Of a stretch of DNA of 64,000 nucleotides, positions 1 through 25,065 are shown one piece after another. Location of the stretch: positions 1 to 64,000 of IMG/VR virus record IMGVR_UViG_3300047160_005605. One strand, 5' to 3'. The DNA is from a virus. Taxonomy: Duplodnaviria; Caudoviricetes. The first letter of the stretch is position 1. Each line of letters begins with the position of its first letter. The notes under the pieces are model-generated. The model was not told the DNA's origin and ran no database searches. It was given only the letters and a program-made list of their open reading frames with translations. A program made the position numbers and the translations under genes.

Positions 1-576
1 GCGGCGCTCATTAAGATGCACAGTCGCAACTTCTTCAGCACTGTTGAAAAGAGACAGCGCTCAACTCTGACGCACACGATTACGTGTGCTGTGCTCGCAG
101 CGTAGCGAACGCAATTGACAAATCGACTCAAGACTCAACTTTGAGCGCCCAGACGCGCCACAAGCGATTTGTGAACGTCTAACAAGTGCTCAAAGCGAAT
201 AGCTCTAGACGTGCTTTCGTTGTGTCTGCTCTCTGCTCGACATGTAATCACTCGCACTGTGCTCTGTGTGCTGTGCGAACTATTCACAGTGCTCTTGTGA
301 GCGACAGCAAGCTTTCAATCACTGCGTTAATCTTTCGACTGAGAGAGCAACAGATAAAAGCGACAGCGCCTGAGAGCATATCTCTGTGAGTCAAGCGAGC
401 ACAGCAACAGCGCGGCGCTATCGAGCGCCAATTGCGCCAAGCGACTTACACAAGCTGAGCGTCACTCAAGAGCGAGTGACGTGCACTTGTCTAAGCTGTG
501 TTCGTCATGAGTGACACAAGCAAGTCACTTTTCAGTGACAGTCGCAAGCTTCAATTGACTTGAGACACAAGCGCTC

Positions 577-645
577 AGCGAGCACAGCATCAAGCTGTGC
601 TCGCTGTCGCTTAGACGCTTGCTCTGTGTGCGAGCGTCTAAGCGA
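577..645. repeat. Two adjacent perfect inverted repeats
   Basis: agcgagcacagc(577-588)/gctgtgctcgct(594-605) and tcgcttagacgct(607-619)/agcgtctaagcga(633-645). Confidence 0.85.
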
Positions 646-703
646 GCGCTGTCTTGTGACAGCGTATTGTCAACGTGTCTCAAATTGAAAGAGAGCTAGA
701 CAA

Positions 704-1291
704 ATGCAAGTTGTTTTCACTGAGCGACAGCGCCAGCTATTGGCGCTTGCTGAGCGCTGGCGCAAGAGTCAGCGCGAGCAGCGCAAGCAGAGCGAGCAAG
801 AGCAGCGCGAAGCGAAAGCGAGCGTCAGCAAACGCTTGACGCGAAGCGAGCAAGAGCAGCTAGCAAGCGCCCGCATTGCACAGCGCAAGCGAGCGCAAGA
901 GCAGCAAGAGCAAGAGCAGCGCGCCAAGCGCTCTGCTCTCTTGTGCGAACTAGCTGCGAAGCGCGTCAGCTTTCAAGCTGTGTGCAAAAAAGCTTATATA
1001 AGCAAGCTTGAATACGACAGCGCCAAGCAAAAGCACGTCAAGCGCACAATCGTCATTCGCTGTCGCACGTTGTACATAAGCGCTGACGCGCTCAACACTG
1101 TGCGAAAGCTGTTCTTGAGCACACGTAACAAAGAAGTCAGATATGTGCTGAGCGAAGCGAAAGCGCCCGATGATACAGACTATCGGCGCGTAGCGTCACT
1201 CACACACAATGAGGCGCTTGATTATCTGACGCGCTTGCTGACAAAAGATCGAGCATACACTGCAATGCATGAGCTACTGAATTGTAATTGA
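704..1291 (+). CDS. Hypothetical early protein with Q/E/R-rich coiled-coil N-terminus; contains no Gly
   Basis: 195-aa ORF preceded by the leader box GTGTCTCAA...AAAGAGAGCTA; followed by a terminator-like hairpin. Confidence 0.75.
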   Translation: MQVVFTERQRQLLALAERWRKSQREQRKQSEQEQREAKASVSKRLTRSEQEQLASARIAQRKRAQEQQEQEQRAKRSALLCELAAKRVSFQAVCKKAYISKLEYDSAKQKHVKRTIVIRCRTLYISADALNTVRKLFLSTRNKEVRYVLSEAKAPDDTDYRRVASLTHNEALDYLTRLLTKDRAYTAMHELLNCN

Positions 1292-1299
1292 GTCAAGCG

Positions 1300-1343
1300 A
1301 AGCTGAGTGAGTGACAAGCAATTGTCACTCACTCAGCTTTTGC
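1300..1343 (+). terminator. 18-bp perfect hairpin followed by a T-run, likely intrinsic terminator
   Basis: aagctgagtgagtgacaa-gcaa-ttgtcactcactcagctt then ttgc, just after the 704-1291 stop. Confidence 0.6.
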
Positions 1344-1348
1344 AGCTT

Positions 1349-1388
1349 TTGCGAAAGCATTGACAAGCGTATGTCAATGCTTTCGCAA
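1349..1388. repeat. 17-bp perfect inverted repeat containing TTGACA on both strands
   Basis: ttgcgaaagcattgaca-agcgta-tgtcaatgctttcgcaa. Confidence 0.8.
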
Positions 1389-1469
1389 GTGCTGTTAGCT
1401 GTGCACACACTTGAGCAGAGCGAGCACTTTGCTTGCTCTTGCTACTTCAGCACAGCGAGAGAGCTAGAC

Positions 1470-2021
1470 ATGTCACAAGTCAATTTTGCAGACGTTGTAA
1501 ACTGCGGCGCGCTGAGTGACAATGCTATGTCACAAGCGCTCAAGTCGCTCGCGATGCGAAGCGCTGCTCGCAGCACAGCGAGCAAGAGCGACAGCAAGAG
1601 CGACAAGCGCAAGCGCAAGAGCGCCAAGAGCGCGAAAGCGAGCGTCAGCGCCCAGACGTACGTGCAGACGAGAGCACAGCACAGAGAACAGTATTACAGC
1701 AAGCGCAAGATCGCTCATCATGCGAACACTGCTCAATTCAGTGTCAAGCGCCCCGGCGTAATCGCAACGATTATTGACGTGTTGCGAGCAGCGAGCGAGC
1801 AGCGCCCAGTGACGAAAGAGCAAGTGCTCGACAAGCTGTGCAAGCGCTTCACTGAGCGCCCGCGCGAGCACATGAAAGCGACTGTTAGTATGCAAGTCAA
1901 AAGCGGTTTGCGAATCGAAAAGCAGCTTGAGGTCAGCGAAAACGAAAAAGGTTTTTGGCTGACGCAAGAAGCTATCGACAAGAGCAAAGCGAGCGTCAGC
2001 ACAGCACCCAGCACGAACTAA
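1470..2021 (+). CDS. Basic protein with C-terminal winged-helix-like domain (paralog 1 of 3)
   Basis: ATG at 1470 after GAGAGAGCTAGAC; C-terminal GVIATIIDVL...PVTKEQVLDKL...GFWL aligns with 8550-9701 and 18364-18891. Confidence 0.8.
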   Translation: MSQVNFADVVNCGALSDNAMSQALKSLAMRSAARSTASKSDSKSDKRKRKSAKSAKASVSAQTYVQTRAQHREQYYSKRKIAHHANTAQFSVKRPGVIATIIDVLRAASEQRPVTKEQVLDKLCKRFTERPREHMKATVSMQVKSGLRIEKQLEVSENEKGFWLTQEAIDKSKASVSTAPSTN

Positions 2022-2028
2022 GTCGATT

Positions 2029-2100
2029 GAAGCGAGCACAGCACACATGCTGTGCTCGCTTCGCTTGCGCTGTCGCTCTGACAGCGCAAGCGAAGCGAGC
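2029..2100. repeat. Two overlapping, mutually exclusive perfect hairpins (15 bp and 21 bp)
   Basis: 2029-2043/2048-2062 and 2054-2074/2080-2100 share 2054-2062. Confidence 0.85.
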
Positions 2101-2169
2101 AAGCGCCTAGCTGCTCGCGCCCAGCGCCCCAAGCGCTGAGCGACGAGAGGAAAGGTTGCGCTCGCTGTA

Positions 2170-2229
2170 AAGGGTTACGCGCGTAAGGGTTACGCTGCGT
2201 AAGAGGTAAGGTGTCTCAAGCGTAAGAGG
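2170..2229. repeat. Short direct repeats and palindromes at the edge of the GG-free leader
   Basis: AAGGGTTACGC at 2170 and 2185; GCGTAAG(A)GG at 2181, 2197 and 2220; palindromes TTACGCGCGTAA and TTACGCTGCGTAA. Confidence 0.75.
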
Positions 2230-2260
2230 AGCTATCTGCGGAAGTTCCTGAACTCTGCTC

Positions 2261-2464
2261 TTGCAAGAGGCAGCGCAAGCTGCGAACGAAGAGGATCCGA
2301 AGTGCAAGGGAGTCTGCAATGAACGGAGCCCCGAGCGACGTTCCCCGCCGAAGAAGAGAAGAGAATGGGATTGTGAGAGGTGCGGTCGGGGTTGGATTGA
2401 AGTTCCTGCCTGGGTCCGAACCGTCAGCGAAGCGCACGCATCGGCGGAAGAGGACCTGAAGTGA
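2261..2464 (+). CDS. Small hypothetical protein with CxxC motifs
   Basis: CKGVC and CERC motifs; stop codon embedded in repeat element copy 1; TTG start uncertain. Confidence 0.5.
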   Translation: MQEAAQAANEEDPKCKGVCNERSPERRSPPKKRREWDCERCGRGWIEVPAWVRTVSEAHASAEEDLK

Positions 2465-2552
2465 CTCCCTCTACCATGCTCTCGCAAGAGAGCATGGACT
2501 AGGTAGCCATTTCGGTTATCTGTGTCTCAACTCAAGTCAAAGGAGCTAAGTT
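2462..2552 (+). promoter_or_regulatory. Intergenic structured repeat, copy 1 of 7, plus leader box and RBS
   Basis: TGACT-C-CCT-CTA-CC[atgctctc GCAA gagagcat]GG-ACT-AGG-T-AGCCA, then TGTGTCTCAACTCAAGTCAAAGGAGCTA. Confidence 0.8.
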
Positions 2553-4355: not shown

Positions 4356-4733
4356 TTGGACCAGATCCTCAAGAACAGCACGTACCTTCCCGAAGCGGGT
4401 TTGGTAGTGCAGCTTCGCAAGGCGCTGGAAAAGCTGGGCGAGGTAGCGCTCGGTCAGCTAAACGTCATCATCATGTGCAAGGAATCGGATGCACGGATGA
4501 CGTTTGTGATGGAAATTGCCAATCGGGAAGTCCCGGAAAGGAAACCGCCCTGGGTGGTGCACTTCCGTCGTAATGATGGAACGGATGAGATTTTTGGTTC
4601 ATTCGAGGACGAAAAGGCAGCCGACGAGTGGACCGAGATGTTTATCGCTCAGTGCGAGAAGGAGGACGGAAAGTTCGATGGCGTCTGCGCTCCTCAAGAG
4701 CTGTCCGACCCGAAGTTTTCCGATCCCGCGTAA
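4356..4733 (+). CDS. Hypothetical early protein
   Basis: 125-aa ORF whose TAA forms the start of repeat copy 4. Confidence 0.7.
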   Translation: MDQILKNSTYLPEAGLVVQLRKALEKLGEVALGQLNVIIMCKESDARMTFVMEIANREVPERKPPWVVHFRRNDGTDEIFGSFEDEKAADEWTEMFIAQCEKEDGKFDGVCAPQELSDPKFSDPA

Positions 4734-4811
4734 CGATCCCCATTACCACCCTCTCGCGTGAGAGGGTGGACCTGGTGACCGTTCTGTGTCTCAAGTGAAA
4801 GGAGCTAGGTT
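4731..4811 (+). promoter_or_regulatory. Intergenic structured repeat, copy 4 of 7
   Basis: AACGATC-C-CCA-TTA-CC[accctctc gcgt gagagggt]GG-ACC-TGG-T-GACCGTT, then TGTGTCTCAAGTGAAAGGAGCTA. Confidence 0.85.
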
Positions 4812-5432
4812 ATGCTGTGGAAAGCCAGCAGTGTGTACGATGCAGGAACCATTTCCTTCGACATGGCCGACACTTTCCAGGCCGCTTGGGAGTATCTTTG
4901 GGATAAAAACCAAAAGCTCCTCAAGAAATGGGACCGCTCGTACTACCACTACGTCTCGGCGACGGATCTGGTGCGGCGCTTCCGCGCTTCGCTGGTCGAG
5001 CGCATTGACAAGCGACCGTATGGGTCGCTCGATTGCGACGGCTACGGTGTGCGCGTGCATCTCAACGGCAAGGGCATGACCCTGCTTGGATGGGCACGCG
5101 ACTGGTTGTATTGTCAGGTCCGAGCAGGGAAGCTCGAGGCGTACAACCCGAAAGGTTCGACCTGCAGCGGTTTGCGCTTCCGACCTGTAGGGGCTTCCTA
5201 CTCGGCAGCGGAGATCGAGCTGCGCAGCCTCAGCAAGGAGGAGAGGTCGCGCCGCTATCGCATTTACCACGCAAAGGACGTGGAAGGCGGTGCTCTGTGT
5301 GGTGTCAAGAACCGAAGCATGGGCGGTCGGCATCCGTTCCGAAAGCGCATCGCTATCGTCGGTGAGGATGGCAAGGTGACGTGCAAGCGCTGTCTCCGCG
5401 CGATGGAGATGCGGAAGTTCCTAAACTCCTGA
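4812..5432 (+). CDS. Hypothetical early protein with C-terminal Cys/His motif (YH...LCG...VTCKRC)
   Basis: 206-aa ORF, strong RBS. Confidence 0.8.
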   Translation: MLWKASSVYDAGTISFDMADTFQAAWEYLWDKNQKLLKKWDRSYYHYVSATDLVRRFRASLVERIDKRPYGSLDCDGYGVRVHLNGKGMTLLGWARDWLYCQVRAGKLEAYNPKGSTCSGLRFRPVGASYSAAEIELRSLSKEERSRRYRIYHAKDVEGGALCGVKNRSMGGRHPFRKRIAIVGEDGKVTCKRCLRAMEMRKFLNS

Positions 5433-13985: not shown

Positions 13986-14226
13986 GGAATTCCGGAAGGT
14001 AGTCGATGGCAGCTTCCTCGAGACCACAAGAGCCGAGCGCTGCGCCATCGTCGAGCACCGAAAGGTGTGCAGGACTTGCGATGAATATCTCACTAATATT
14101 AGTCTGGAAAGCATCAAGGGATTGAAGGAGAGGCTTCCTTCGCCCCTCTATGAGTTGGCGGTGCTAGCCCTATGGGGCGCTGCCAGTACGATCCGCAAGC
14201 AAGACGTGGAGGACCCCGAGACATGA
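13975..14226 (+). CDS. zf-HC2/ZAS anti-sigma-like zinc-finger protein
   Basis: MTCKEF...VEHRKVCRTC (C-x(n)-HxxxCxxC). Confidence 0.6.
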   Translation: MTCKEFRKVVDGSFLETTRAERCAIVEHRKVCRTCDEYLTNISLESIKGLKERLPSPLYELAVLALWGAASTIRKQDVEDPET

Positions 14227-15098
14227 CCTTTGCAGAGATTCTCGACCATTATGGTGTGCACTACGAAACCGAGGGCAAGCACACCCGGCGAGGCTGGGTA
14301 CAACTCGATTGCCCTTGGTGCAGCGGCGAGCTTTACTTGGGTTACAACATCGCCGGCAATTATTGCAATTGCTGGCGCTGTGGTAGCCACAGCACGCTGG
14401 ACGTGCTAGTATCAGTGACCCGAGCGAACTACCCCGCAGTGATCGGGCTTTACAAGCAATTAGACAGAGCAGACTATGAGAAGCCTCACACCGTAGTCTG
14501 CGGCAAGCTGCTAGTGCCTCAAGCTTCATTCCTGGAGAAAGCGCATGTCAAGTATCTCCATGAAGTGCGCGGCTTTCGGCATAGCGAGATTAACGAATTG
14601 GTTAAGTTATGGAAGATCAGAGGCATTGGTCCCTTCGCTCCGAAGCTGACTTGGCGCATTTTAATCCCCATAGAGTATAGGAGCGAAGTGGTCAGCTGGA
14701 CCACGCGCAGCATCGGCGAGTTTACGAGCGTGCGCTATGTGTCGGCGTCTCCTTCCGAAGAGAGGATGCACCACAAGCACTTGCTCTATGGTGAGGACTA
14801 TGCCAGAGCGTCTATCATCGTCTGCGAAGGCCCTATAGACGTGTGGAAGATCGGGCCCGGCGCTGTTGCTACGCTTGGCGTAGGCTATACGGGGGAGCAG
14901 CTTTTGCGCATGAGCCGCTACCCTCACCGTGCGATCTGGTTCGACAATGAGCCTGACGCTCGCCAGCGCGCTCGACGGCTTAGAGATGATTTAACTGCAT
15001 TCCCTGGGACAACCTATGTCATCATGAGCGATGCGAAGGATGCGGGATCCGCCAAACGCTCAGAGATAGCAGAGGTCAGAAGGAGATTCTTGTTATGA
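14223..15098 (+). CDS. DNA primase (zinc finger plus TOPRIM)
   Basis: CPWC...CWRC zinc finger; VCEGPID, ATLG, FDNE TOPRIM motifs. Confidence 0.9.
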   Translation: MTFAEILDHYGVHYETEGKHTRRGWVQLDCPWCSGELYLGYNIAGNYCNCWRCGSHSTLDVLVSVTRANYPAVIGLYKQLDRADYEKPHTVVCGKLLVPQASFLEKAHVKYLHEVRGFRHSEINELVKLWKIRGIGPFAPKLTWRILIPIEYRSEVVSWTTRSIGEFTSVRYVSASPSEERMHHKHLLYGEDYARASIIVCEGPIDVWKIGPGAVATLGVGYTGEQLLRMSRYPHRAIWFDNEPDARQRARRLRDDLTAFPGTTYVIMSDAKDAGSAKRSEIAEVRRRFLL

Positions 15099-15382
15099 CA
15101 GAAACGGCGTGGCGATGGCATATTATGGACCTAGAGATTGGCAGTGAAGAGACTTTTCGCTGCCAAGGGTGGGAGTTGCGAGTGAAGCGAGTTCGCCAGG
15201 AGCTACATACGCTTTGGTTGAGCCGGCCTAATATCCTCCGAACACGGTATTTCACGCATCGCGCAAACCTCCTGAATTTCGGTAGAAAAATGTTTTTCAA
15301 AGAATTTGTAGCGTTGAACCAAAGTTCGCGCAATAATAAAGTGAGAGACAAAGCACGGCAATATTGGGAGATACCAACATGA
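15095..15382 (+). CDS. Hypothetical protein
   Basis: ATGA overlap with the primase stop. Confidence 0.6.
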   Translation: MTETAWRWHIMDLEIGSEETFRCQGWELRVKRVRQELHTLWLSRPNILRTRYFTHRANLLNFGRKMFFKEFVALNQSSRNNKVRDKARQYWEIPT

Positions 15383-15420
15383 ATGCAGGCAAGCTGCTCA
15401 GCAGACGGACGAGCTGGCGA

Positions 15421-15954
15421 GCCTGCGCCTCCCAATTTGGGGTAGGATGTATAGGAGAGCCGAACGGGATTCGGTTGCCGCAGGCGGCAGACAACTCTCT
15501 GAAGGAGGTCCGAAGATCGTCCCTGCTGACTCATGTTCCCGGCATGTGCATTTCGACTGCACTGCGTGGCGGTGACCTCACCGCTGACAATGGGGCTGGG
15601 GGATACGAAGTATCCCCGAGCACTGGGCATTCTGAGCTGGGTCGCCAAGCCCATTGTACCGGCCGCACTCCGGGCAAGCACCACAACGTCCGTGATGGGG
15701 TGAACCAGATACCAACGCAACTGGAGGGTCATACAAGCGGCTCCTCCGAGCGTGCGCTAGCTCCGCTATCTGGGTGCCGCAAGCACTTATGCGGGGGGCC
15801 TGGACTTCTCGTCACAAGGGCAGGGACTATCACTCTAAAGGTTGCCATTCGACACATCAACACTGCCTTGTCACCACGATGTACTACTACCCTATGGATG
15901 GTCCTGGGTAGCAAGTACATCTACCGTGCTCGATGAGTATTGCTAGCGCAATAC
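15421..15954 (+). ncRNA. Candidate large structured non-coding RNA (or structured origin); strand inferred from flanking genes
   Basis: More than 10 nested helices identified by eye, including an 8-bp pairing 15519-15526/15820-15827; overlapping ORFs on both strands have atypical composition. Confidence 0.45.
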
Positions 15955-16072
15955 CCATCTCACAGTAAGTGGTGGTTAAGGAGAAGCCGGAGGCTGCAGG
16001 AAGTTCCTAGATGATCCTTTTGTCTCATTTTCGGGAGGAAACCATGGGCAAGGCAGAACAAACTCTCCAGGC

Positions 16073-16603
16073 ATGGAGGCATCTTATATGACCCCGTTTA
16101 TGCCGTGGCAGGAACTGCGTCAGGACAAGTCCAAGCGTAAGCTTGATCCGCAGGTCAAGGATGTGCTCGATAGCGTCTTGCAGCTTGACTGGCCCGCGGG
16201 CAGCGACCAGCAAGTGTTGCCTGTGCTCACTAAGAGCTTGCGAGCGTACAAGAGCTTTCGGGAGCAATTCGCAGCGATGGACAAGCGCTTGCGCGAGCGA
16301 GCGCTGGCACTCCGGGCAGAAGCGAAGCAAGCAGATTTGCCAGAACGCAAGACCAAAGAGTTGCACTTGCTCTATCGGCACATACGCCTGATCGAGCACC
16401 TCCGCAACTACTTTGCACCAAGCCATATGTTTATGAAAATCTGGATGACGCACGTACAGAGAGAAGCCAAGTACAGGGGAAATAACTTACGCAAGCTTGC
16501 CTTCTCTACAAAGTCGCCACTTTTCACAAAGCTAGGGCGACAATGGACTTACGAGTATTGCCATCAGTCTTATTGGTTTGACCAACTTCTCGAAGAACTT
16601 TAG
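16073..16603 (+). CDS. Hypothetical protein
   Basis: 176-aa ORF in the replication cluster. Confidence 0.7.
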   Translation: MEASYMTPFMPWQELRQDKSKRKLDPQVKDVLDSVLQLDWPAGSDQQVLPVLTKSLRAYKSFREQFAAMDKRLRERALALRAEAKQADLPERKTKELHLLYRHIRLIEHLRNYFAPSHMFMKIWMTHVQREAKYRGNNLRKLAFSTKSPLFTKLGRQWTYEYCHQSYWFDQLLEEL

Positions 16604-16611
16604 GAGGGGCT

Positions 16612-16887
16612 ATGACCTGTAATGAGTTTCAGATTACCTTTGGGCAGGTTCATCCCCTGCAAGCAACATCCCCAATGATCCTTGCGATGGCCATTCACAT
16701 GAAGGAATGCCCATCGTGCAAGAAATGGATGCGTCAGGGAGAGGATCCAGACGAAAAACAGCATCCACTTATGACGTTTGCCTTGCAGAGAAAGGCCCGC
16801 ATGGCATTGAACGATTGCCAGACTGATCCCGAATTGCGCCAGCAGATGGAGGCATACGATGCGCTCAAGCGTAAGGAACGAAAGTAA
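16612..16887 (+). CDS. Second zf-HC2/ZAS anti-sigma-like protein
   Basis: MTCNEF...IHMKECPSC; AGGAGG RBS. Confidence 0.6.
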   Translation: MTCNEFQITFGQVHPLQATSPMILAMAIHMKECPSCKKWMRQGEDPDEKQHPLMTFALQRKARMALNDCQTDPELRQQMEAYDALKRKERK

Positions 16888-18256
16888 GACGGAGAGGCGA
16901 GTCCTCACCGGCATGATTACGGATAAAGATGTCCTTGCGCGCATCGCTCCGAAGTGGGACAAGGACCTCTTTCGGTCGAAGTTCTCGAACATCGTCGGTG
17001 GCTGGTGCGTATCTTACTTCAACAAATATGGCAAAGCGCCCGAGAGACACATAGAAGGGTTGTTTGAGACTTGGGCGACAGCGAGCAAGGACAAAGCCAC
17101 AGTCGAGACCATAGATGAGTTTTTAAGTGGTTTGTCCGATGAGTATGCGAGTCTCCGCAAAGCCAAGAACAGCGAGTATGTCCTAGACCTAGCTTCTACA
17201 CACTTCAACGAAGTGAAGGCGTCTAGGCACGCCGAGCAAGTGCAGGGCTTTGTAGACAGTGGCAACCTTGACCAAGCGAAGAAAGCCATCAATACCTATA
17301 GCGATATCCAAATCGCATCGGGAGATGGCATAGACGTTCTCACGGACCATGCCGCTATCCAAAAGGCGTTTGAGGACAAGAAGGAGCCGCTAATCTCCTA
17401 TCCCGGTGCTCTTGGCAGCTTCTTCGGTGATGTATTAGAACGCGATGGACTGGTTGCCTTCATGGGTCCTGAGAAGCGAGGTAAGACGTGGATGCTCATA
17501 GACGTAGCTTGGGTGGGAATGCTGCAACGTCGTAAGGTTGCCTTCTTTGAGGTTGGTGATATGAGCCAGAGTCAAATCCTGCGGCGCTTTATGACCAGAG
17601 CGAGCAAGCGACCACTTACCGCGAGAAGTGTACTCTATCCACGCTCGTTGACGCACGACCTAGACGAGCCATTCGCTGAGGTGGTCCAAGAAGAGAGGGA
17701 GTTCACTAAGCCGTTGCACTGGAAGACGGCCTGGAAAGCTTGCCAGAAGATCCTGAAGGTGGACCTACGGAGCAAGCATTCTTACCTCAAGCTGTTTTGC
17801 TATCCTAACTCTTCTATTAACATCTTAGGTATTAGAGATGTGCTGCACCAATTAGAAAGGCTAGACTGGACTCCTGATATAGTGGTGCTCGACTACCCGG
17901 ACATACTCGCACCTTATCCGGGCTACATGGAGAGCAGAGACCAGATCAATGCGACGTGGAAAGCCATGCGGGCTATAAGTCAATCCTACCACTGCCTCTT
18001 CGTCACGGCGACGCAGAGCGACGCAGCATCCTATGAAGTGATGACACTACACCGAAAGCACTTCGCCGATGATAAGAGAAAGTACGCGCAAGTTACCGAT
18101 ATGATTGGCTTGTCGCAGACCGAAGATGAGAAGAAGCGGGGTATCTTACGTCTCAATCATCTGGCTTTGCGCGAAGGAGCCTATAGCGAGAGCCATTGCG
18201 TGCACGTCGCGGGTTGCTTGGCGATAGCGAATCCCTGCATACTTAGCACGTTCTAG
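16859..18256 (+). CDS. Replicative DNA helicase (DnaB-like)
   Basis: Walker A GPEKRGKT, Walker B VVLDY, TATQS, LALREG. Confidence 0.85.
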   Translation: MRSSVRNESKTERRVLTGMITDKDVLARIAPKWDKDLFRSKFSNIVGGWCVSYFNKYGKAPERHIEGLFETWATASKDKATVETIDEFLSGLSDEYASLRKAKNSEYVLDLASTHFNEVKASRHAEQVQGFVDSGNLDQAKKAINTYSDIQIASGDGIDVLTDHAAIQKAFEDKKEPLISYPGALGSFFGDVLERDGLVAFMGPEKRGKTWMLIDVAWVGMLQRRKVAFFEVGDMSQSQILRRFMTRASKRPLTARSVLYPRSLTHDLDEPFAEVVQEEREFTKPLHWKTAWKACQKILKVDLRSKHSYLKLFCYPNSSINILGIRDVLHQLERLDWTPDIVVLDYPDILAPYPGYMESRDQINATWKAMRAISQSYHCLFVTATQSDAASYEVMTLHRKHFADDKRKYAQVTDMIGLSQTEDEKKRGILRLNHLALREGAYSESHCVHVAGCLAIANPCILSTF

Positions 18257-18319: not shown

Positions 18320-18363
18320 AGTAGAACAAAGCGAGTCACACAACCTTGAAAGGAGGTTCGTTC

Positions 18364-18891
18364 GTGAAGATCAGGCAAGTCGCTCTAGTGTCGTTGTTCC
18401 AAGAGTTAGGTTTCGCCAACGCCGAGAGTTGGGAAGTCTCGAAGCTCCAGAGCCGAGCCCAGAAAATCCAATCTCTGCTCGATGACGAAACGGGTCCCAA
18501 GACTGCCAAAGGCCGCAAGCTCTGTGAGGAGCTGGTCAAGGCCGTCGAAGCTGAGGAGGAAATCGAAGTTATGGCAAGTGCTGCGTCTACCAAAACCGCC
18601 CCCGCGAAGGGGAGTAAGAAAGGCTCGAAAAAGGCCCCGAAGGCCGCCGCGAAGCCTAGCAGCAACGGGCCGCGCAAGGTCGGTGTCATTGACACCATCA
18701 TTGAATGCCTCAAGAAGGGCAGTGCCAAGAGCCCTGTCACGAAAGAGGACATCCTCAAGGCTCTCGTCAAGAAGTTCCCCGACCGCCGGCCGGAGGCAAT
18801 GAAGAACACGGTCTCCGCCCAGGTGCCCACGCATCTCCGTATCGAGAAGAACATTACGGTCAAGAGCAACGACAACGGCTACTGGCTGTAA
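18364..18891 (+). CDS. Lys/Ala-rich histone-like protein with C-terminal winged-helix-like domain (paralog 3 of 3)
   Basis: AGGAGG RBS; KGSKKGSKKAPKAAAK linker; GVIDTIIECL...PVTKEDIL...GYWL. Confidence 0.8.
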   Translation: MKIRQVALVSLFQELGFANAESWEVSKLQSRAQKIQSLLDDETGPKTAKGRKLCEELVKAVEAEEEIEVMASAASTKTAPAKGSKKGSKKAPKAAAKPSSNGPRKVGVIDTIIECLKKGSAKSPVTKEDILKALVKKFPDRRPEAMKNTVSAQVPTHLRIEKNITVKSNDNGYWL

Positions 18892-18918
18892 TCGCCCTTT
18901 CCACGCTGCCACAGCGCT

Positions 18919-24344: not shown

Positions 24345-24591
24345 AGCAGGTATAGATATCCTGTTGTTGGTCATCCAACACGATGAGGAAGGGAGGTATC
24401 CTATCGCCGAACGAATTGTGCGATACCTAATAGGTAAACAAGAGTGGAGCTATCCATGCCAGTCTAAGAGCCGGGCAATGAGCCGCTTCCGGCGTATCAA
24501 TGATTGGTCAGGTCTACTGCGAACACTTTATGATCTTCGCAGTGGCTCTGGAATGAGATGGTCGAGCGATCACGAACGATTCTGGCATTAA
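24331..24591 (+). CDS. Hypothetical protein
   Basis: GAGGA RBS, overlaps the clamp stop. Confidence 0.55.
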   Translation: MLLSEAGIDILLLVIQHDEEGRYPIAERIVRYLIGKQEWSYPCQSKSRAMSRFRRINDWSGLLRTLYDLRSGSGMRWSSDHERFWH

Positions 24592-24604
24592 AAGGAGGAC
24601 AATC

Positions 24605-24799
24605 ATGCCACTGAATGATCTTCTGCCCACCGCTATTGGCACCAAAGGTATTCATGTATCAGCGGAGTTGCGCGTCAGTGCCATGCACCTTCAAGACATC
24701 GGCTGGGTAGCTCAGTTGATGGAGCGAGCCGCGACGCACATCGACGCCCTAGAGAATCTGGTCAGTGAACTCAAAGCGAAAGAGAAGATAGCATCTTGA
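24605..24799 (+). CDS. Hypothetical protein
   Basis: AGGAGG RBS. Confidence 0.6.
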   Translation: MPLNDLLPTAIGTKGIHVSAELRVSAMHLQDIGWVAQLMERAATHIDALENLVSELKAKEKIAS

Positions 24800-24840
24800 G
24801 ATCCCGGTCCCTTACCCCTTTAGAATAAGGAGGACGTACC

Positions 24841-25065
24841 TTGTTACCATCGAAAGAAAATGCCTTGCAAGCGAATGGCGCTTTGCAGAGGATCACCGAT
24901 GACCACGTGTCGCGGGACTTTACCTTTGTCCGTGACTTTCTGGAGGCCGCCGAGCGCAAGCTGCCCTATGAGAAGTCCTTCGCCAAGAAGGCGGCCAAGA
25001 AGGCGGCCAAGAAGGCGGTCAAGCAGGCTGCCGAGAAGGGCTTCGGTCTGAGCGAGAAAAAGTGA
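24841..25065 (+). CDS. Small protein with AKKA tandem repeats
   Basis: gccaagaaggcg x3 at ~24982-25017; AAGGAGG RBS. Confidence 0.6.
   Translation: MLPSKENALQANGALQRITDDHVSRDFTFVRDFLEAAERKLPYEKSFAKKAAKKAAKKAVKQAAEKGFGLSEKK

Follow-up and report, generated by a model that had tools for sequence, protein, structure and literature searches.

In the phage genome analyzed here, a replication initiator that related phages usually encode as one protein is reduced to its C-terminal module, and its N-terminal and middle modules are missing. In their place, between the genes for a DNA primase and a DnaB-like replicative helicase, lies a segment of about 1 kb (15099-16087) containing an AT trough and long dyads, without iterons and, over its GC-rich two-thirds, without a protein-coding signature. 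We tentatively favor the view that, in this lineage, the half of the initiator that binds the origin was replaced by the segment, which may be origin DNA or DNA that controls initiation and across which two orphan open reading frames (ORFs) run. The DNA is the first 64 kb (the window) of a 72,228-bp IMG/VR virus record from an uncultured phage.

Location and Limits of the Segment

The local gene order is primase, the orphan ORF o95, the stretch flagged in the original prediction, the gene o176, a 91-codon ORF and the helicase, which places the flagged stretch within the replication module. The features on which the analysis draws are as follows.

14172-15098, plus strand: DNA primase gene, left anchor of the array (PHROG 47 DNA primase, E = 2e-24; weak Toprim_2 match)
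15095-15382, plus strand: o95, orphan 95-codon ORF with an ATGA overlap with the primase stop and an AAGGAG Shine-Dalgarno sequence 8 nt upstream
15138-15193, no strand: 29-bp hyphenated dyad (TTGGCAGTGAAGAG / CTTTTCGCTGCCAA), with the half-site present a third time, in direct orientation, at 15176-15187
15272-15351, no strand: AT-rich trough, GC 0.32, with A5/T5 tracts
15379-15936, plus strand: P0001, 185-codon ORF, ATGA-coupled to o95, with GGGAG 8 nt upstream of its ATG
15383-16072, no strand: flagged stretch, 690 nt of high-complexity, GC-rich DNA without a coding signature in six frames, holding the helices of the original prediction (15421-15954)
15593-15623, no strand: strongest local hairpin/dyad, arms of 12-14 nt, GAA loop
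15932-15959, no strand: hairpin/dyad, 12-nt arms (11 of 12 paired), TAGC loop, spanning the stop codon of P0001
16088-16603, plus strand: o176, 171 amino acids from the ATG at 16088, GGAGG 8 nt upstream; C-terminal module of the initiator family alone
16859-18256, plus strand: DnaB-like replicative helicase gene, right anchor of the array (PHROG 19, E = 1.6e-22)

The flagged stretch makes up the GC-rich two-thirds of the segment, with a GC content of 0.57 as compared with a genome mean of 0.53. GC content peaks at 0.62 over 15504-15803, directly after the AT trough and among the most GC-rich 300-nt stretches (top 0.6%), and the strong hairpins are located within this GC-rich DNA. The segment is identical on 15-17 assembled contigs from a near-clonal population, the exact P0001 protein being found on 15 contigs and the exact o95 protein on 17.

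Only the C-terminal Module of the Initiator Is Retained

The array SNF2 helicase, small ORF, primase, X and DnaB-like helicase is common to 37 related loci, with the primase at 33-54% identity in related loci and the helicase at 34-56% across the 37. The position X is usually taken, in about 20 related loci, by one ORF of 300-420 amino acids that encodes a replication initiator of O-like/DnaD-like type, its N terminus formed by an HTH_36 winged helix. Within the window the profile of this family matches o176 only, over positions 250-378 of 381 (E = 7e-19), a result with which a second alignment (A2) agrees; searched with A2, the full record returned o176 at E = 1.8e-40 and no second match in 72 kb. 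The 72-kb record has no HTH_36 or DnaD-like module in any of its six frames, the interval 15039-16918 included, and no recognizable origin-binding protein was found in it. The segment occupies the place of the N-terminal two-thirds of the initiator and adjoins the surviving module. Among the relatives, the initiators of three loci (L003, L011 and L012) lack the HTH and keep the middle domain.

Most gene callers start o176 at 16088, after a 151-nt untranslated gap and a fresh Shine-Dalgarno sequence. A mini-ORF of 15 codons with a strong GGGAGG site (16044-16091) ends there, its TGA overlapping the o176 ATG (ATGA), and it may serve translational coupling to o176 after the untranslated gap. At the other end of the segment, o95 is a candidate for a cognate initiator with an origin-binding domain.

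Dyads and an AT Trough at the Position of the Iteron Origin of Relatives

Four relatives carry direct repeats at 21-23-nt spacing some 300-450 nt into the initiator gene (L017, 3697-3768; L002, 5164-5205; L020, 7281-7345; L033, 3156-3195), and the L017 iterons can be read in the protein as a repeated peptide, ARTAQSI. The L003 initiator has no HTH; in this locus an array of three 34-nt units and further repeats fill the non-coding gap that follows the primase gene (4609-4836), with a short initiator after it. In L003, L017 and L020 the AT minimum of the interval falls on these repeats or directly beside them.

The original prediction had offered a structured replication origin as one reading of the flagged stretch. 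This suggestion agrees with the position of the segment, which is that of the iteron origin in the relatives, and with the AT trough and the long dyads that it contains; it does not agree with the absence of iterons. Three or more direct repeats at a spacing of about two helical turns were not found in 15099-16087, no word of 7 or 8 nt recurs as often as three times in 15099-16090, and TRF reports nothing in the segment. A supposed leader box (TGTGTCTCAA) near 16019 was discarded as a two-mismatch match at chance level (53 found as against 54 expected).

Both the dyad boxes and the trough lie inside o95. Three of the 11 matches to the half-site in the window (at most two mismatches) fall at 15138-15193, and the 15138-15166 dyad is one of only three of such strength outside the first 2.1 kb. 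A dyad with 14-nt arms, of which 12 of 14 positions pair, lies inside the primase gene at 14348-14380 and is likewise one of only three of its strength outside the leader. The interval 15138-15193 is a candidate protein-binding site. The trough, a candidate unwinding element or promoter region, is the lowest-GC stretch of 60 and of 80 nt in the 64-kb window and belongs to the least stable 0.2% of 80-nt windows across the 72-kb record, in which 71.3-71.7 kb is more AT-rich; the idea that 15273 marks the AT-richest spot of the genome was dropped, as it holds for the window and not for the full record. The DNA at 71.3-71.7 kb (L055, 7430-7850), beyond the window and near the right end of the record, is the most AT-rich and least stable of the record and is itself a candidate alternative origin, terminus or promoter region.

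Long local dyads are the one feature by which the segment exceeds background. When arms of 12 nt with no more than one mismatch and a loop of up to 6 nt are required, a threshold picked after the data had been seen, there are 10 in the 64 kb: six in the first 2.5 kb, two in the segment (15595-15621 and 15932-15959) and two in the other 60.5 kb. On this post hoc threshold the enrichment in the segment has a Poisson P of 5e-4. With 15138-15166 as the third, the 1 kb holds three long dyads as against three or four in the other 60 kb outside the leader. The 15932-15959 hairpin is not followed by a T-run and was not scored as a terminator, and scans for sigma-70 promoters and for terminators gave nothing relevant at the stretch, the sigma-70 consensus possibly not being that of the host.

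In the reading that we tentatively favor, an unrelated segment of about 1 kb would have replaced the origin-binding winged-helix and DnaD-like middle domains, together with an iteron origin inside or just before the gene, and the C-terminal module of the initiator would have persisted as a separate gene, o176. The resulting origin would consist of the dyad-box cluster (15138-15193), to which a protein may bind, then the easily melted AT trough (15272-15351) and then GC-rich DNA (15383-15960) that could form hairpins when unwound. The two ORFs o95 and P0001 would probably be translated across it, as the lambda O gene is across ori-lambda, with constraints at the level of the DNA, and not protein function, setting the sequence.

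Several findings speak against an origin here. There are no iterons or other repeated motif and no recognizable origin-binding protein, and GC skew, which runs from +0.03 to -0.06 over 15450-15900, has no inflection at the segment. The dyad enrichment was obtained on post hoc thresholds, and no homolog of the segment was found in the collections searched. The DNA at 71.3-71.7 kb is more AT-rich, and the repeat-rich leader (1-2.5 kb) could be the origin instead. Finally, relatives have plain insertions (homing endonuclease genes) at the same junction, so passenger DNA is another possible identity for the segment. Should the origin lie in the segment, the O-like/DnaD-like initiator family can lose its DNA-binding half and the iterons while keeping the helicase-side module; that would raise the question of what marks the origin, with this phage as one natural test case.

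An Open Frame without a Coding Signature

The observation in the original prediction that the overlapping ORFs look unlike proteins was borne out by codon scores, periodicity and predicted folds. P0001 occupies a stop-free run of 183 codons, a length reached in 1.3% of 2000 dinucleotide shuffles (p = 0.013), and its ATG is close to the start of that run. Its GC content by codon position is 0.59/0.57/0.59, as compared with 0.56/0.42/0.60 in genes, and its codon score of -0.047 lies 3 S.D. below that of genes (0.249 ± 0.095); its synonymous-codon score equals the off-frame mean. Three-base periodicity is absent (chi2 = 6.2, p = 0.4) and falls below that of all 94 of 94 gene windows. Because the periodicity test is independent of frame and strand, it excludes as well a gene that was captured recently or has been frameshifted. 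No run of low coding score in the window is longer than 15091-16200.

The protein itself offers as little. P0001 is predicted to have almost no secondary structure (AF2 pLDDT 31; ESM Atlas pLDDT 0.26, i.e. 26), and by our estimate its amino acid composition is about that of a random translation of its GC-rich base composition. Searches of Pfam, PHROGs, 5.8 billion clusters (at near and shorter lengths) and, with phmmer, 1.84 billion representatives found no family and no homolog but P0001 itself; one apparent homolog, P0006, is a repeat protein and its match spurious. As to o95, there is no Pfam or PHROG match and the coding signature is weak (codon score 0.04; periodicity chi2 = 7.4, p = 0.28), and the ESM Atlas pLDDT of 0.57 points to a moderately confident predicted fold.

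An open, Shine-Dalgarno-led and ATGA-coupled frame thus stands alongside an absent coding signature, and for this reason we think that the stretch is probably translated now, or was until recently, yet has a sequence unshaped by selection at the protein level. Constraint at the level of the DNA, as in the proposed replacement of the origin module, would explain such a frame.

The same frame can be taken at face value. Orphan genes are common in phages, and o95 and P0001 may be real lineage-specific proteins, P0001 being basic and disordered, with no further role for the DNA and with the helices incidental to its GC-rich sequence. The length of the open run, the GGGAG site and the overlap with o95 all argue for this, as do the AAGGAG site and predicted fold of o95 itself, and weak periodicity or high GC at the second codon position is also met in some accepted genes of this phage. 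What keeps us doubtful about this alternative, serious as it is, is P0001: a periodicity below every gene window, a codon score far under that of genes, very low pLDDT from both predictors, a random-like composition and no homolog in collections of that size.

Two other places in the window touch on ORF content. At 18336-18912 three long ORFs overlap on both strands (GC 0.59, AT skew 0.38); the plus-strand ORF 18346-18891 scores strongly as coding (0.39) and has counterparts in relatives, and we therefore take the other two to be its shadows. Another interval of about 700 nt that lacks a long ORF lies at 24345-25061 and ends in 4.8 tandem copies of a 12-nt unit (GCCAAGAAGGCG, 24982-25039).

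The Primase-Initiator Junction Is Variable among Relatives

What follows the primase gene differs in nearly every relative: endonuclease genes, unrelated orphan ORFs, repeat arrays or nothing. A free-standing HNH endonuclease gene (NUMOD4 and HNH_3) directly follows it in L013 (3172-3882), and a free-standing GIY-YIG endonuclease gene does so in L022 (3460-3720). The primase-initiator junction is thus a hotspot of swaps and insertions in this phage group. In several relatives inserts of 0.9-1.2 kb split the DnaB-like helicase gene itself (L017, 4627-6981; L016, 363-2981; L018, 669-2984; L050/L051, 2183-4777), the breaks falling at residue ~209/210 in L017, L050 and L051, at ~295/210 with overlap in L016 and at ~340 in L018; these inserts look like inteins or introns.

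No DNA homolog of the segment was found with blastn or nhmmer in phage GenBank records, the 52 related loci and metagenome and genome collections, or in IMG/VR with three exact patterns. A decayed initiator N terminus or a decayed copy of a homing endonuclease was also considered and set aside; the six frames hold no trace of either, and residual periodicity is absent.

That hypervariability, together with the lack of any homolog and with folding at the genome background, is what would be expected if illegitimate recombination or a decayed mobile insertion had removed the N-terminal half of the initiator and left functionless passenger or filler DNA, with ORFs that are accidental or only recently open. 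We consider this unlikely. The segment is identical on 15-17 assembled contigs, no frame retains remnant gene periodicity, and two coupled, Shine-Dalgarno-led ORFs are improbable by chance. The AT trough, GC peak and long dyads are compositional extremes, and 1 kb of DNA without use is seldom retained in a phage genome.

Folding of the Stretch Is at the Genomic Background

The original prediction rested on ten helices seen in the sequence. All are present, nine of the 10 as perfect Watson-Crick pairings and one (15587-97/15648-57) with a bulge. By our estimate, 690 nt of DNA at 57% GC should contain about 17 perfect 7-bp and about four perfect 8-bp complementary pairs by chance, and the 8-bp pairing across ~300 nt for this reason carries no weight.

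The minimum free energy (MFE) of the 690-nt stretch is -276.1 kcal/mol on the plus strand (z = -2.5) and -276.4 kcal/mol on the minus strand (z = -3.85; 20 shuffles each), without a strand preference. For the core 15421-15954 the corresponding z values are -1.97 and -2.13; in ensemble diversity and in base-pair confidence the core stays within ~1.3 S.D. of shuffles, so that its fold is no better defined than theirs. Measured against 690-nt windows of the genome, with MFE regressed on GC, the stretch has a z of -0.69 and ranks 26 of 109. Thirteen coding controls of 690 nt from the same genome gave shuffle z values from +0.9 to -5.9, three of them lower than that of the flagged stretch, and 300-nt windows within the stretch gave z values of -0.1 to -0.8 on the plus strand and a single minus-strand window at -2.3. 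The description "highly structured" is therefore not borne out above background, and an unremarkable folding z-score is among the outcomes that the prediction had itself named as refuting it. The strongest folding outliers are in the leader (window 1-2500), where, on both strands, 300-nt windows reach z values of -4 to -5 and where short tandem repeats, several in number, are also present.

The stretch can serve as a calibration case: helices picked by eye in DNA of 57-62% GC, even 8 bp across 300 nt, are expected by chance, and ordinary genes of this genome reach a shuffle z of about -2.5 as well.

Searches with covariance models and for known RNAs gave a similar picture. Rfam at gathering thresholds had no match in the 64-kb window, and at E values up to 10 it returned two chance-level matches in 15000-16400 (20 and 15 bits, against thresholds of 73 and 35). 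Neither a tRNA nor a tmRNA was returned by ARAGORN. The unremarkable folding, the Rfam result and the lack of a homolog leave a new large RNA class without support.

We regard as quite improbable a lineage-specific large structured RNA on the plus strand, be it a free non-coding RNA, a structured leader or a primer, perhaps reaching from the AT-rich stretch to the 15932-15959 hairpin. Such an RNA would fit the non-coding composition and raised GC content of the stretch, its two very stable hairpins and the untranslated gap and fresh Shine-Dalgarno sequence ahead of o176, and the MFE z values of -2 to -3.9 against shuffles are in a range in which known structured RNAs also fall. Against it, no Rfam model matches up to E = 10, the folding is ordinary beside GC-matched windows and coding controls, the ensemble is like that of shuffles, strand preference is lacking, and hairpin loops, read by eye, have no GNRA or UNCG bias. 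Neither a promoter nor a terminator is predicted, and an open Shine-Dalgarno-led frame crosses the stretch.

We give little credence to a more specific form of this idea, in which a lineage-specific RNA of ~550-650 nt functionally replaces the lost origin-binding half, for example as a primer or R-loop transcript, like ColE1 RNA II, that marks the origin. The C-terminal initiator module and the DnaB-like helicase would then load without an iteron-binding protein.

A self-splicing group I or II intron lying between o95 and o176 and splitting the initiator gene is scarcely credible: the two ORFs are in the same frame (16073 - 15095 = 978, a multiple of 3) and mobile elements do occur in this phage group (the split helicase gene of L016-L018; endonuclease genes at the junction), but no group I or II intron model matches at E = 10, and the idea was rejected on finding no match between o95 and any part of the initiator profile, which means that joining o95 to o176 would not restore the family architecture.

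Comparison with Known Systems

The large RNAs GOLLD, ROOL, HEARO, OLE and raiA resemble the stretch in size class (500-700 nt), location in phage and non-coding composition; the stretch differs from them in having no covariance-model match, no homologs, no multi-copy or conserved context and only background folding. ColE1 RNA II is a structured primer transcript of ~550 nt, and its synthesis across the origin supplies the primer for replication, with no need of an initiator that binds iterons; to our knowledge this is the only way in which an RNA could replace a missing origin-binding domain. The stretch, taken as an RNA, has a similar length, and differs in that no promoter, no pair of G-run and C-run that could give a persistent hybrid and no positive GC skew were seen.

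For the replacement of an origin module that we favor, the parallels are DNA origins. The oriV of the IncQ plasmid RSF1010 has ssiA and ssiB hairpins that are read by the plasmid's own primase, in addition to iterons and the binding protein RepC, and the phages G4 and M13 use hairpin origins for complementary-strand synthesis. In these origins stable hairpins form on unwound single strands, AT-rich and GC-rich blocks adjoin, and the priming signals serve an element-encoded or host primase. The window, unlike RSF1010, has no iterons, and no likeness in sequence or in the paired, opposite-strand ssi layout was seen; the likeness is one in principle only, in that a phage primase gene lies immediately upstream and strong hairpins lie near the AT trough.

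In phage lambda, the N-terminal part of the O initiator binds the iterons and the C-terminal part contacts the P helicase loader. The origin, ori-lambda, has four iterons and a 39-bp high-AT region inside gene O (PMC6022878). The window differs from it in having no iteron array, no winged-helix origin-binding domain and only the C-terminal module of the initiator, and in the ~600 nt of GC-rich, non-repetitive DNA that follow the AT stretch. The related phages resemble it closely, with an origin in or next to the initiator gene that is translated through, iterons ~300-450 nt in and an adjoining AT-rich patch, and the window shares with it dyad symmetry followed by an AT-rich stretch.
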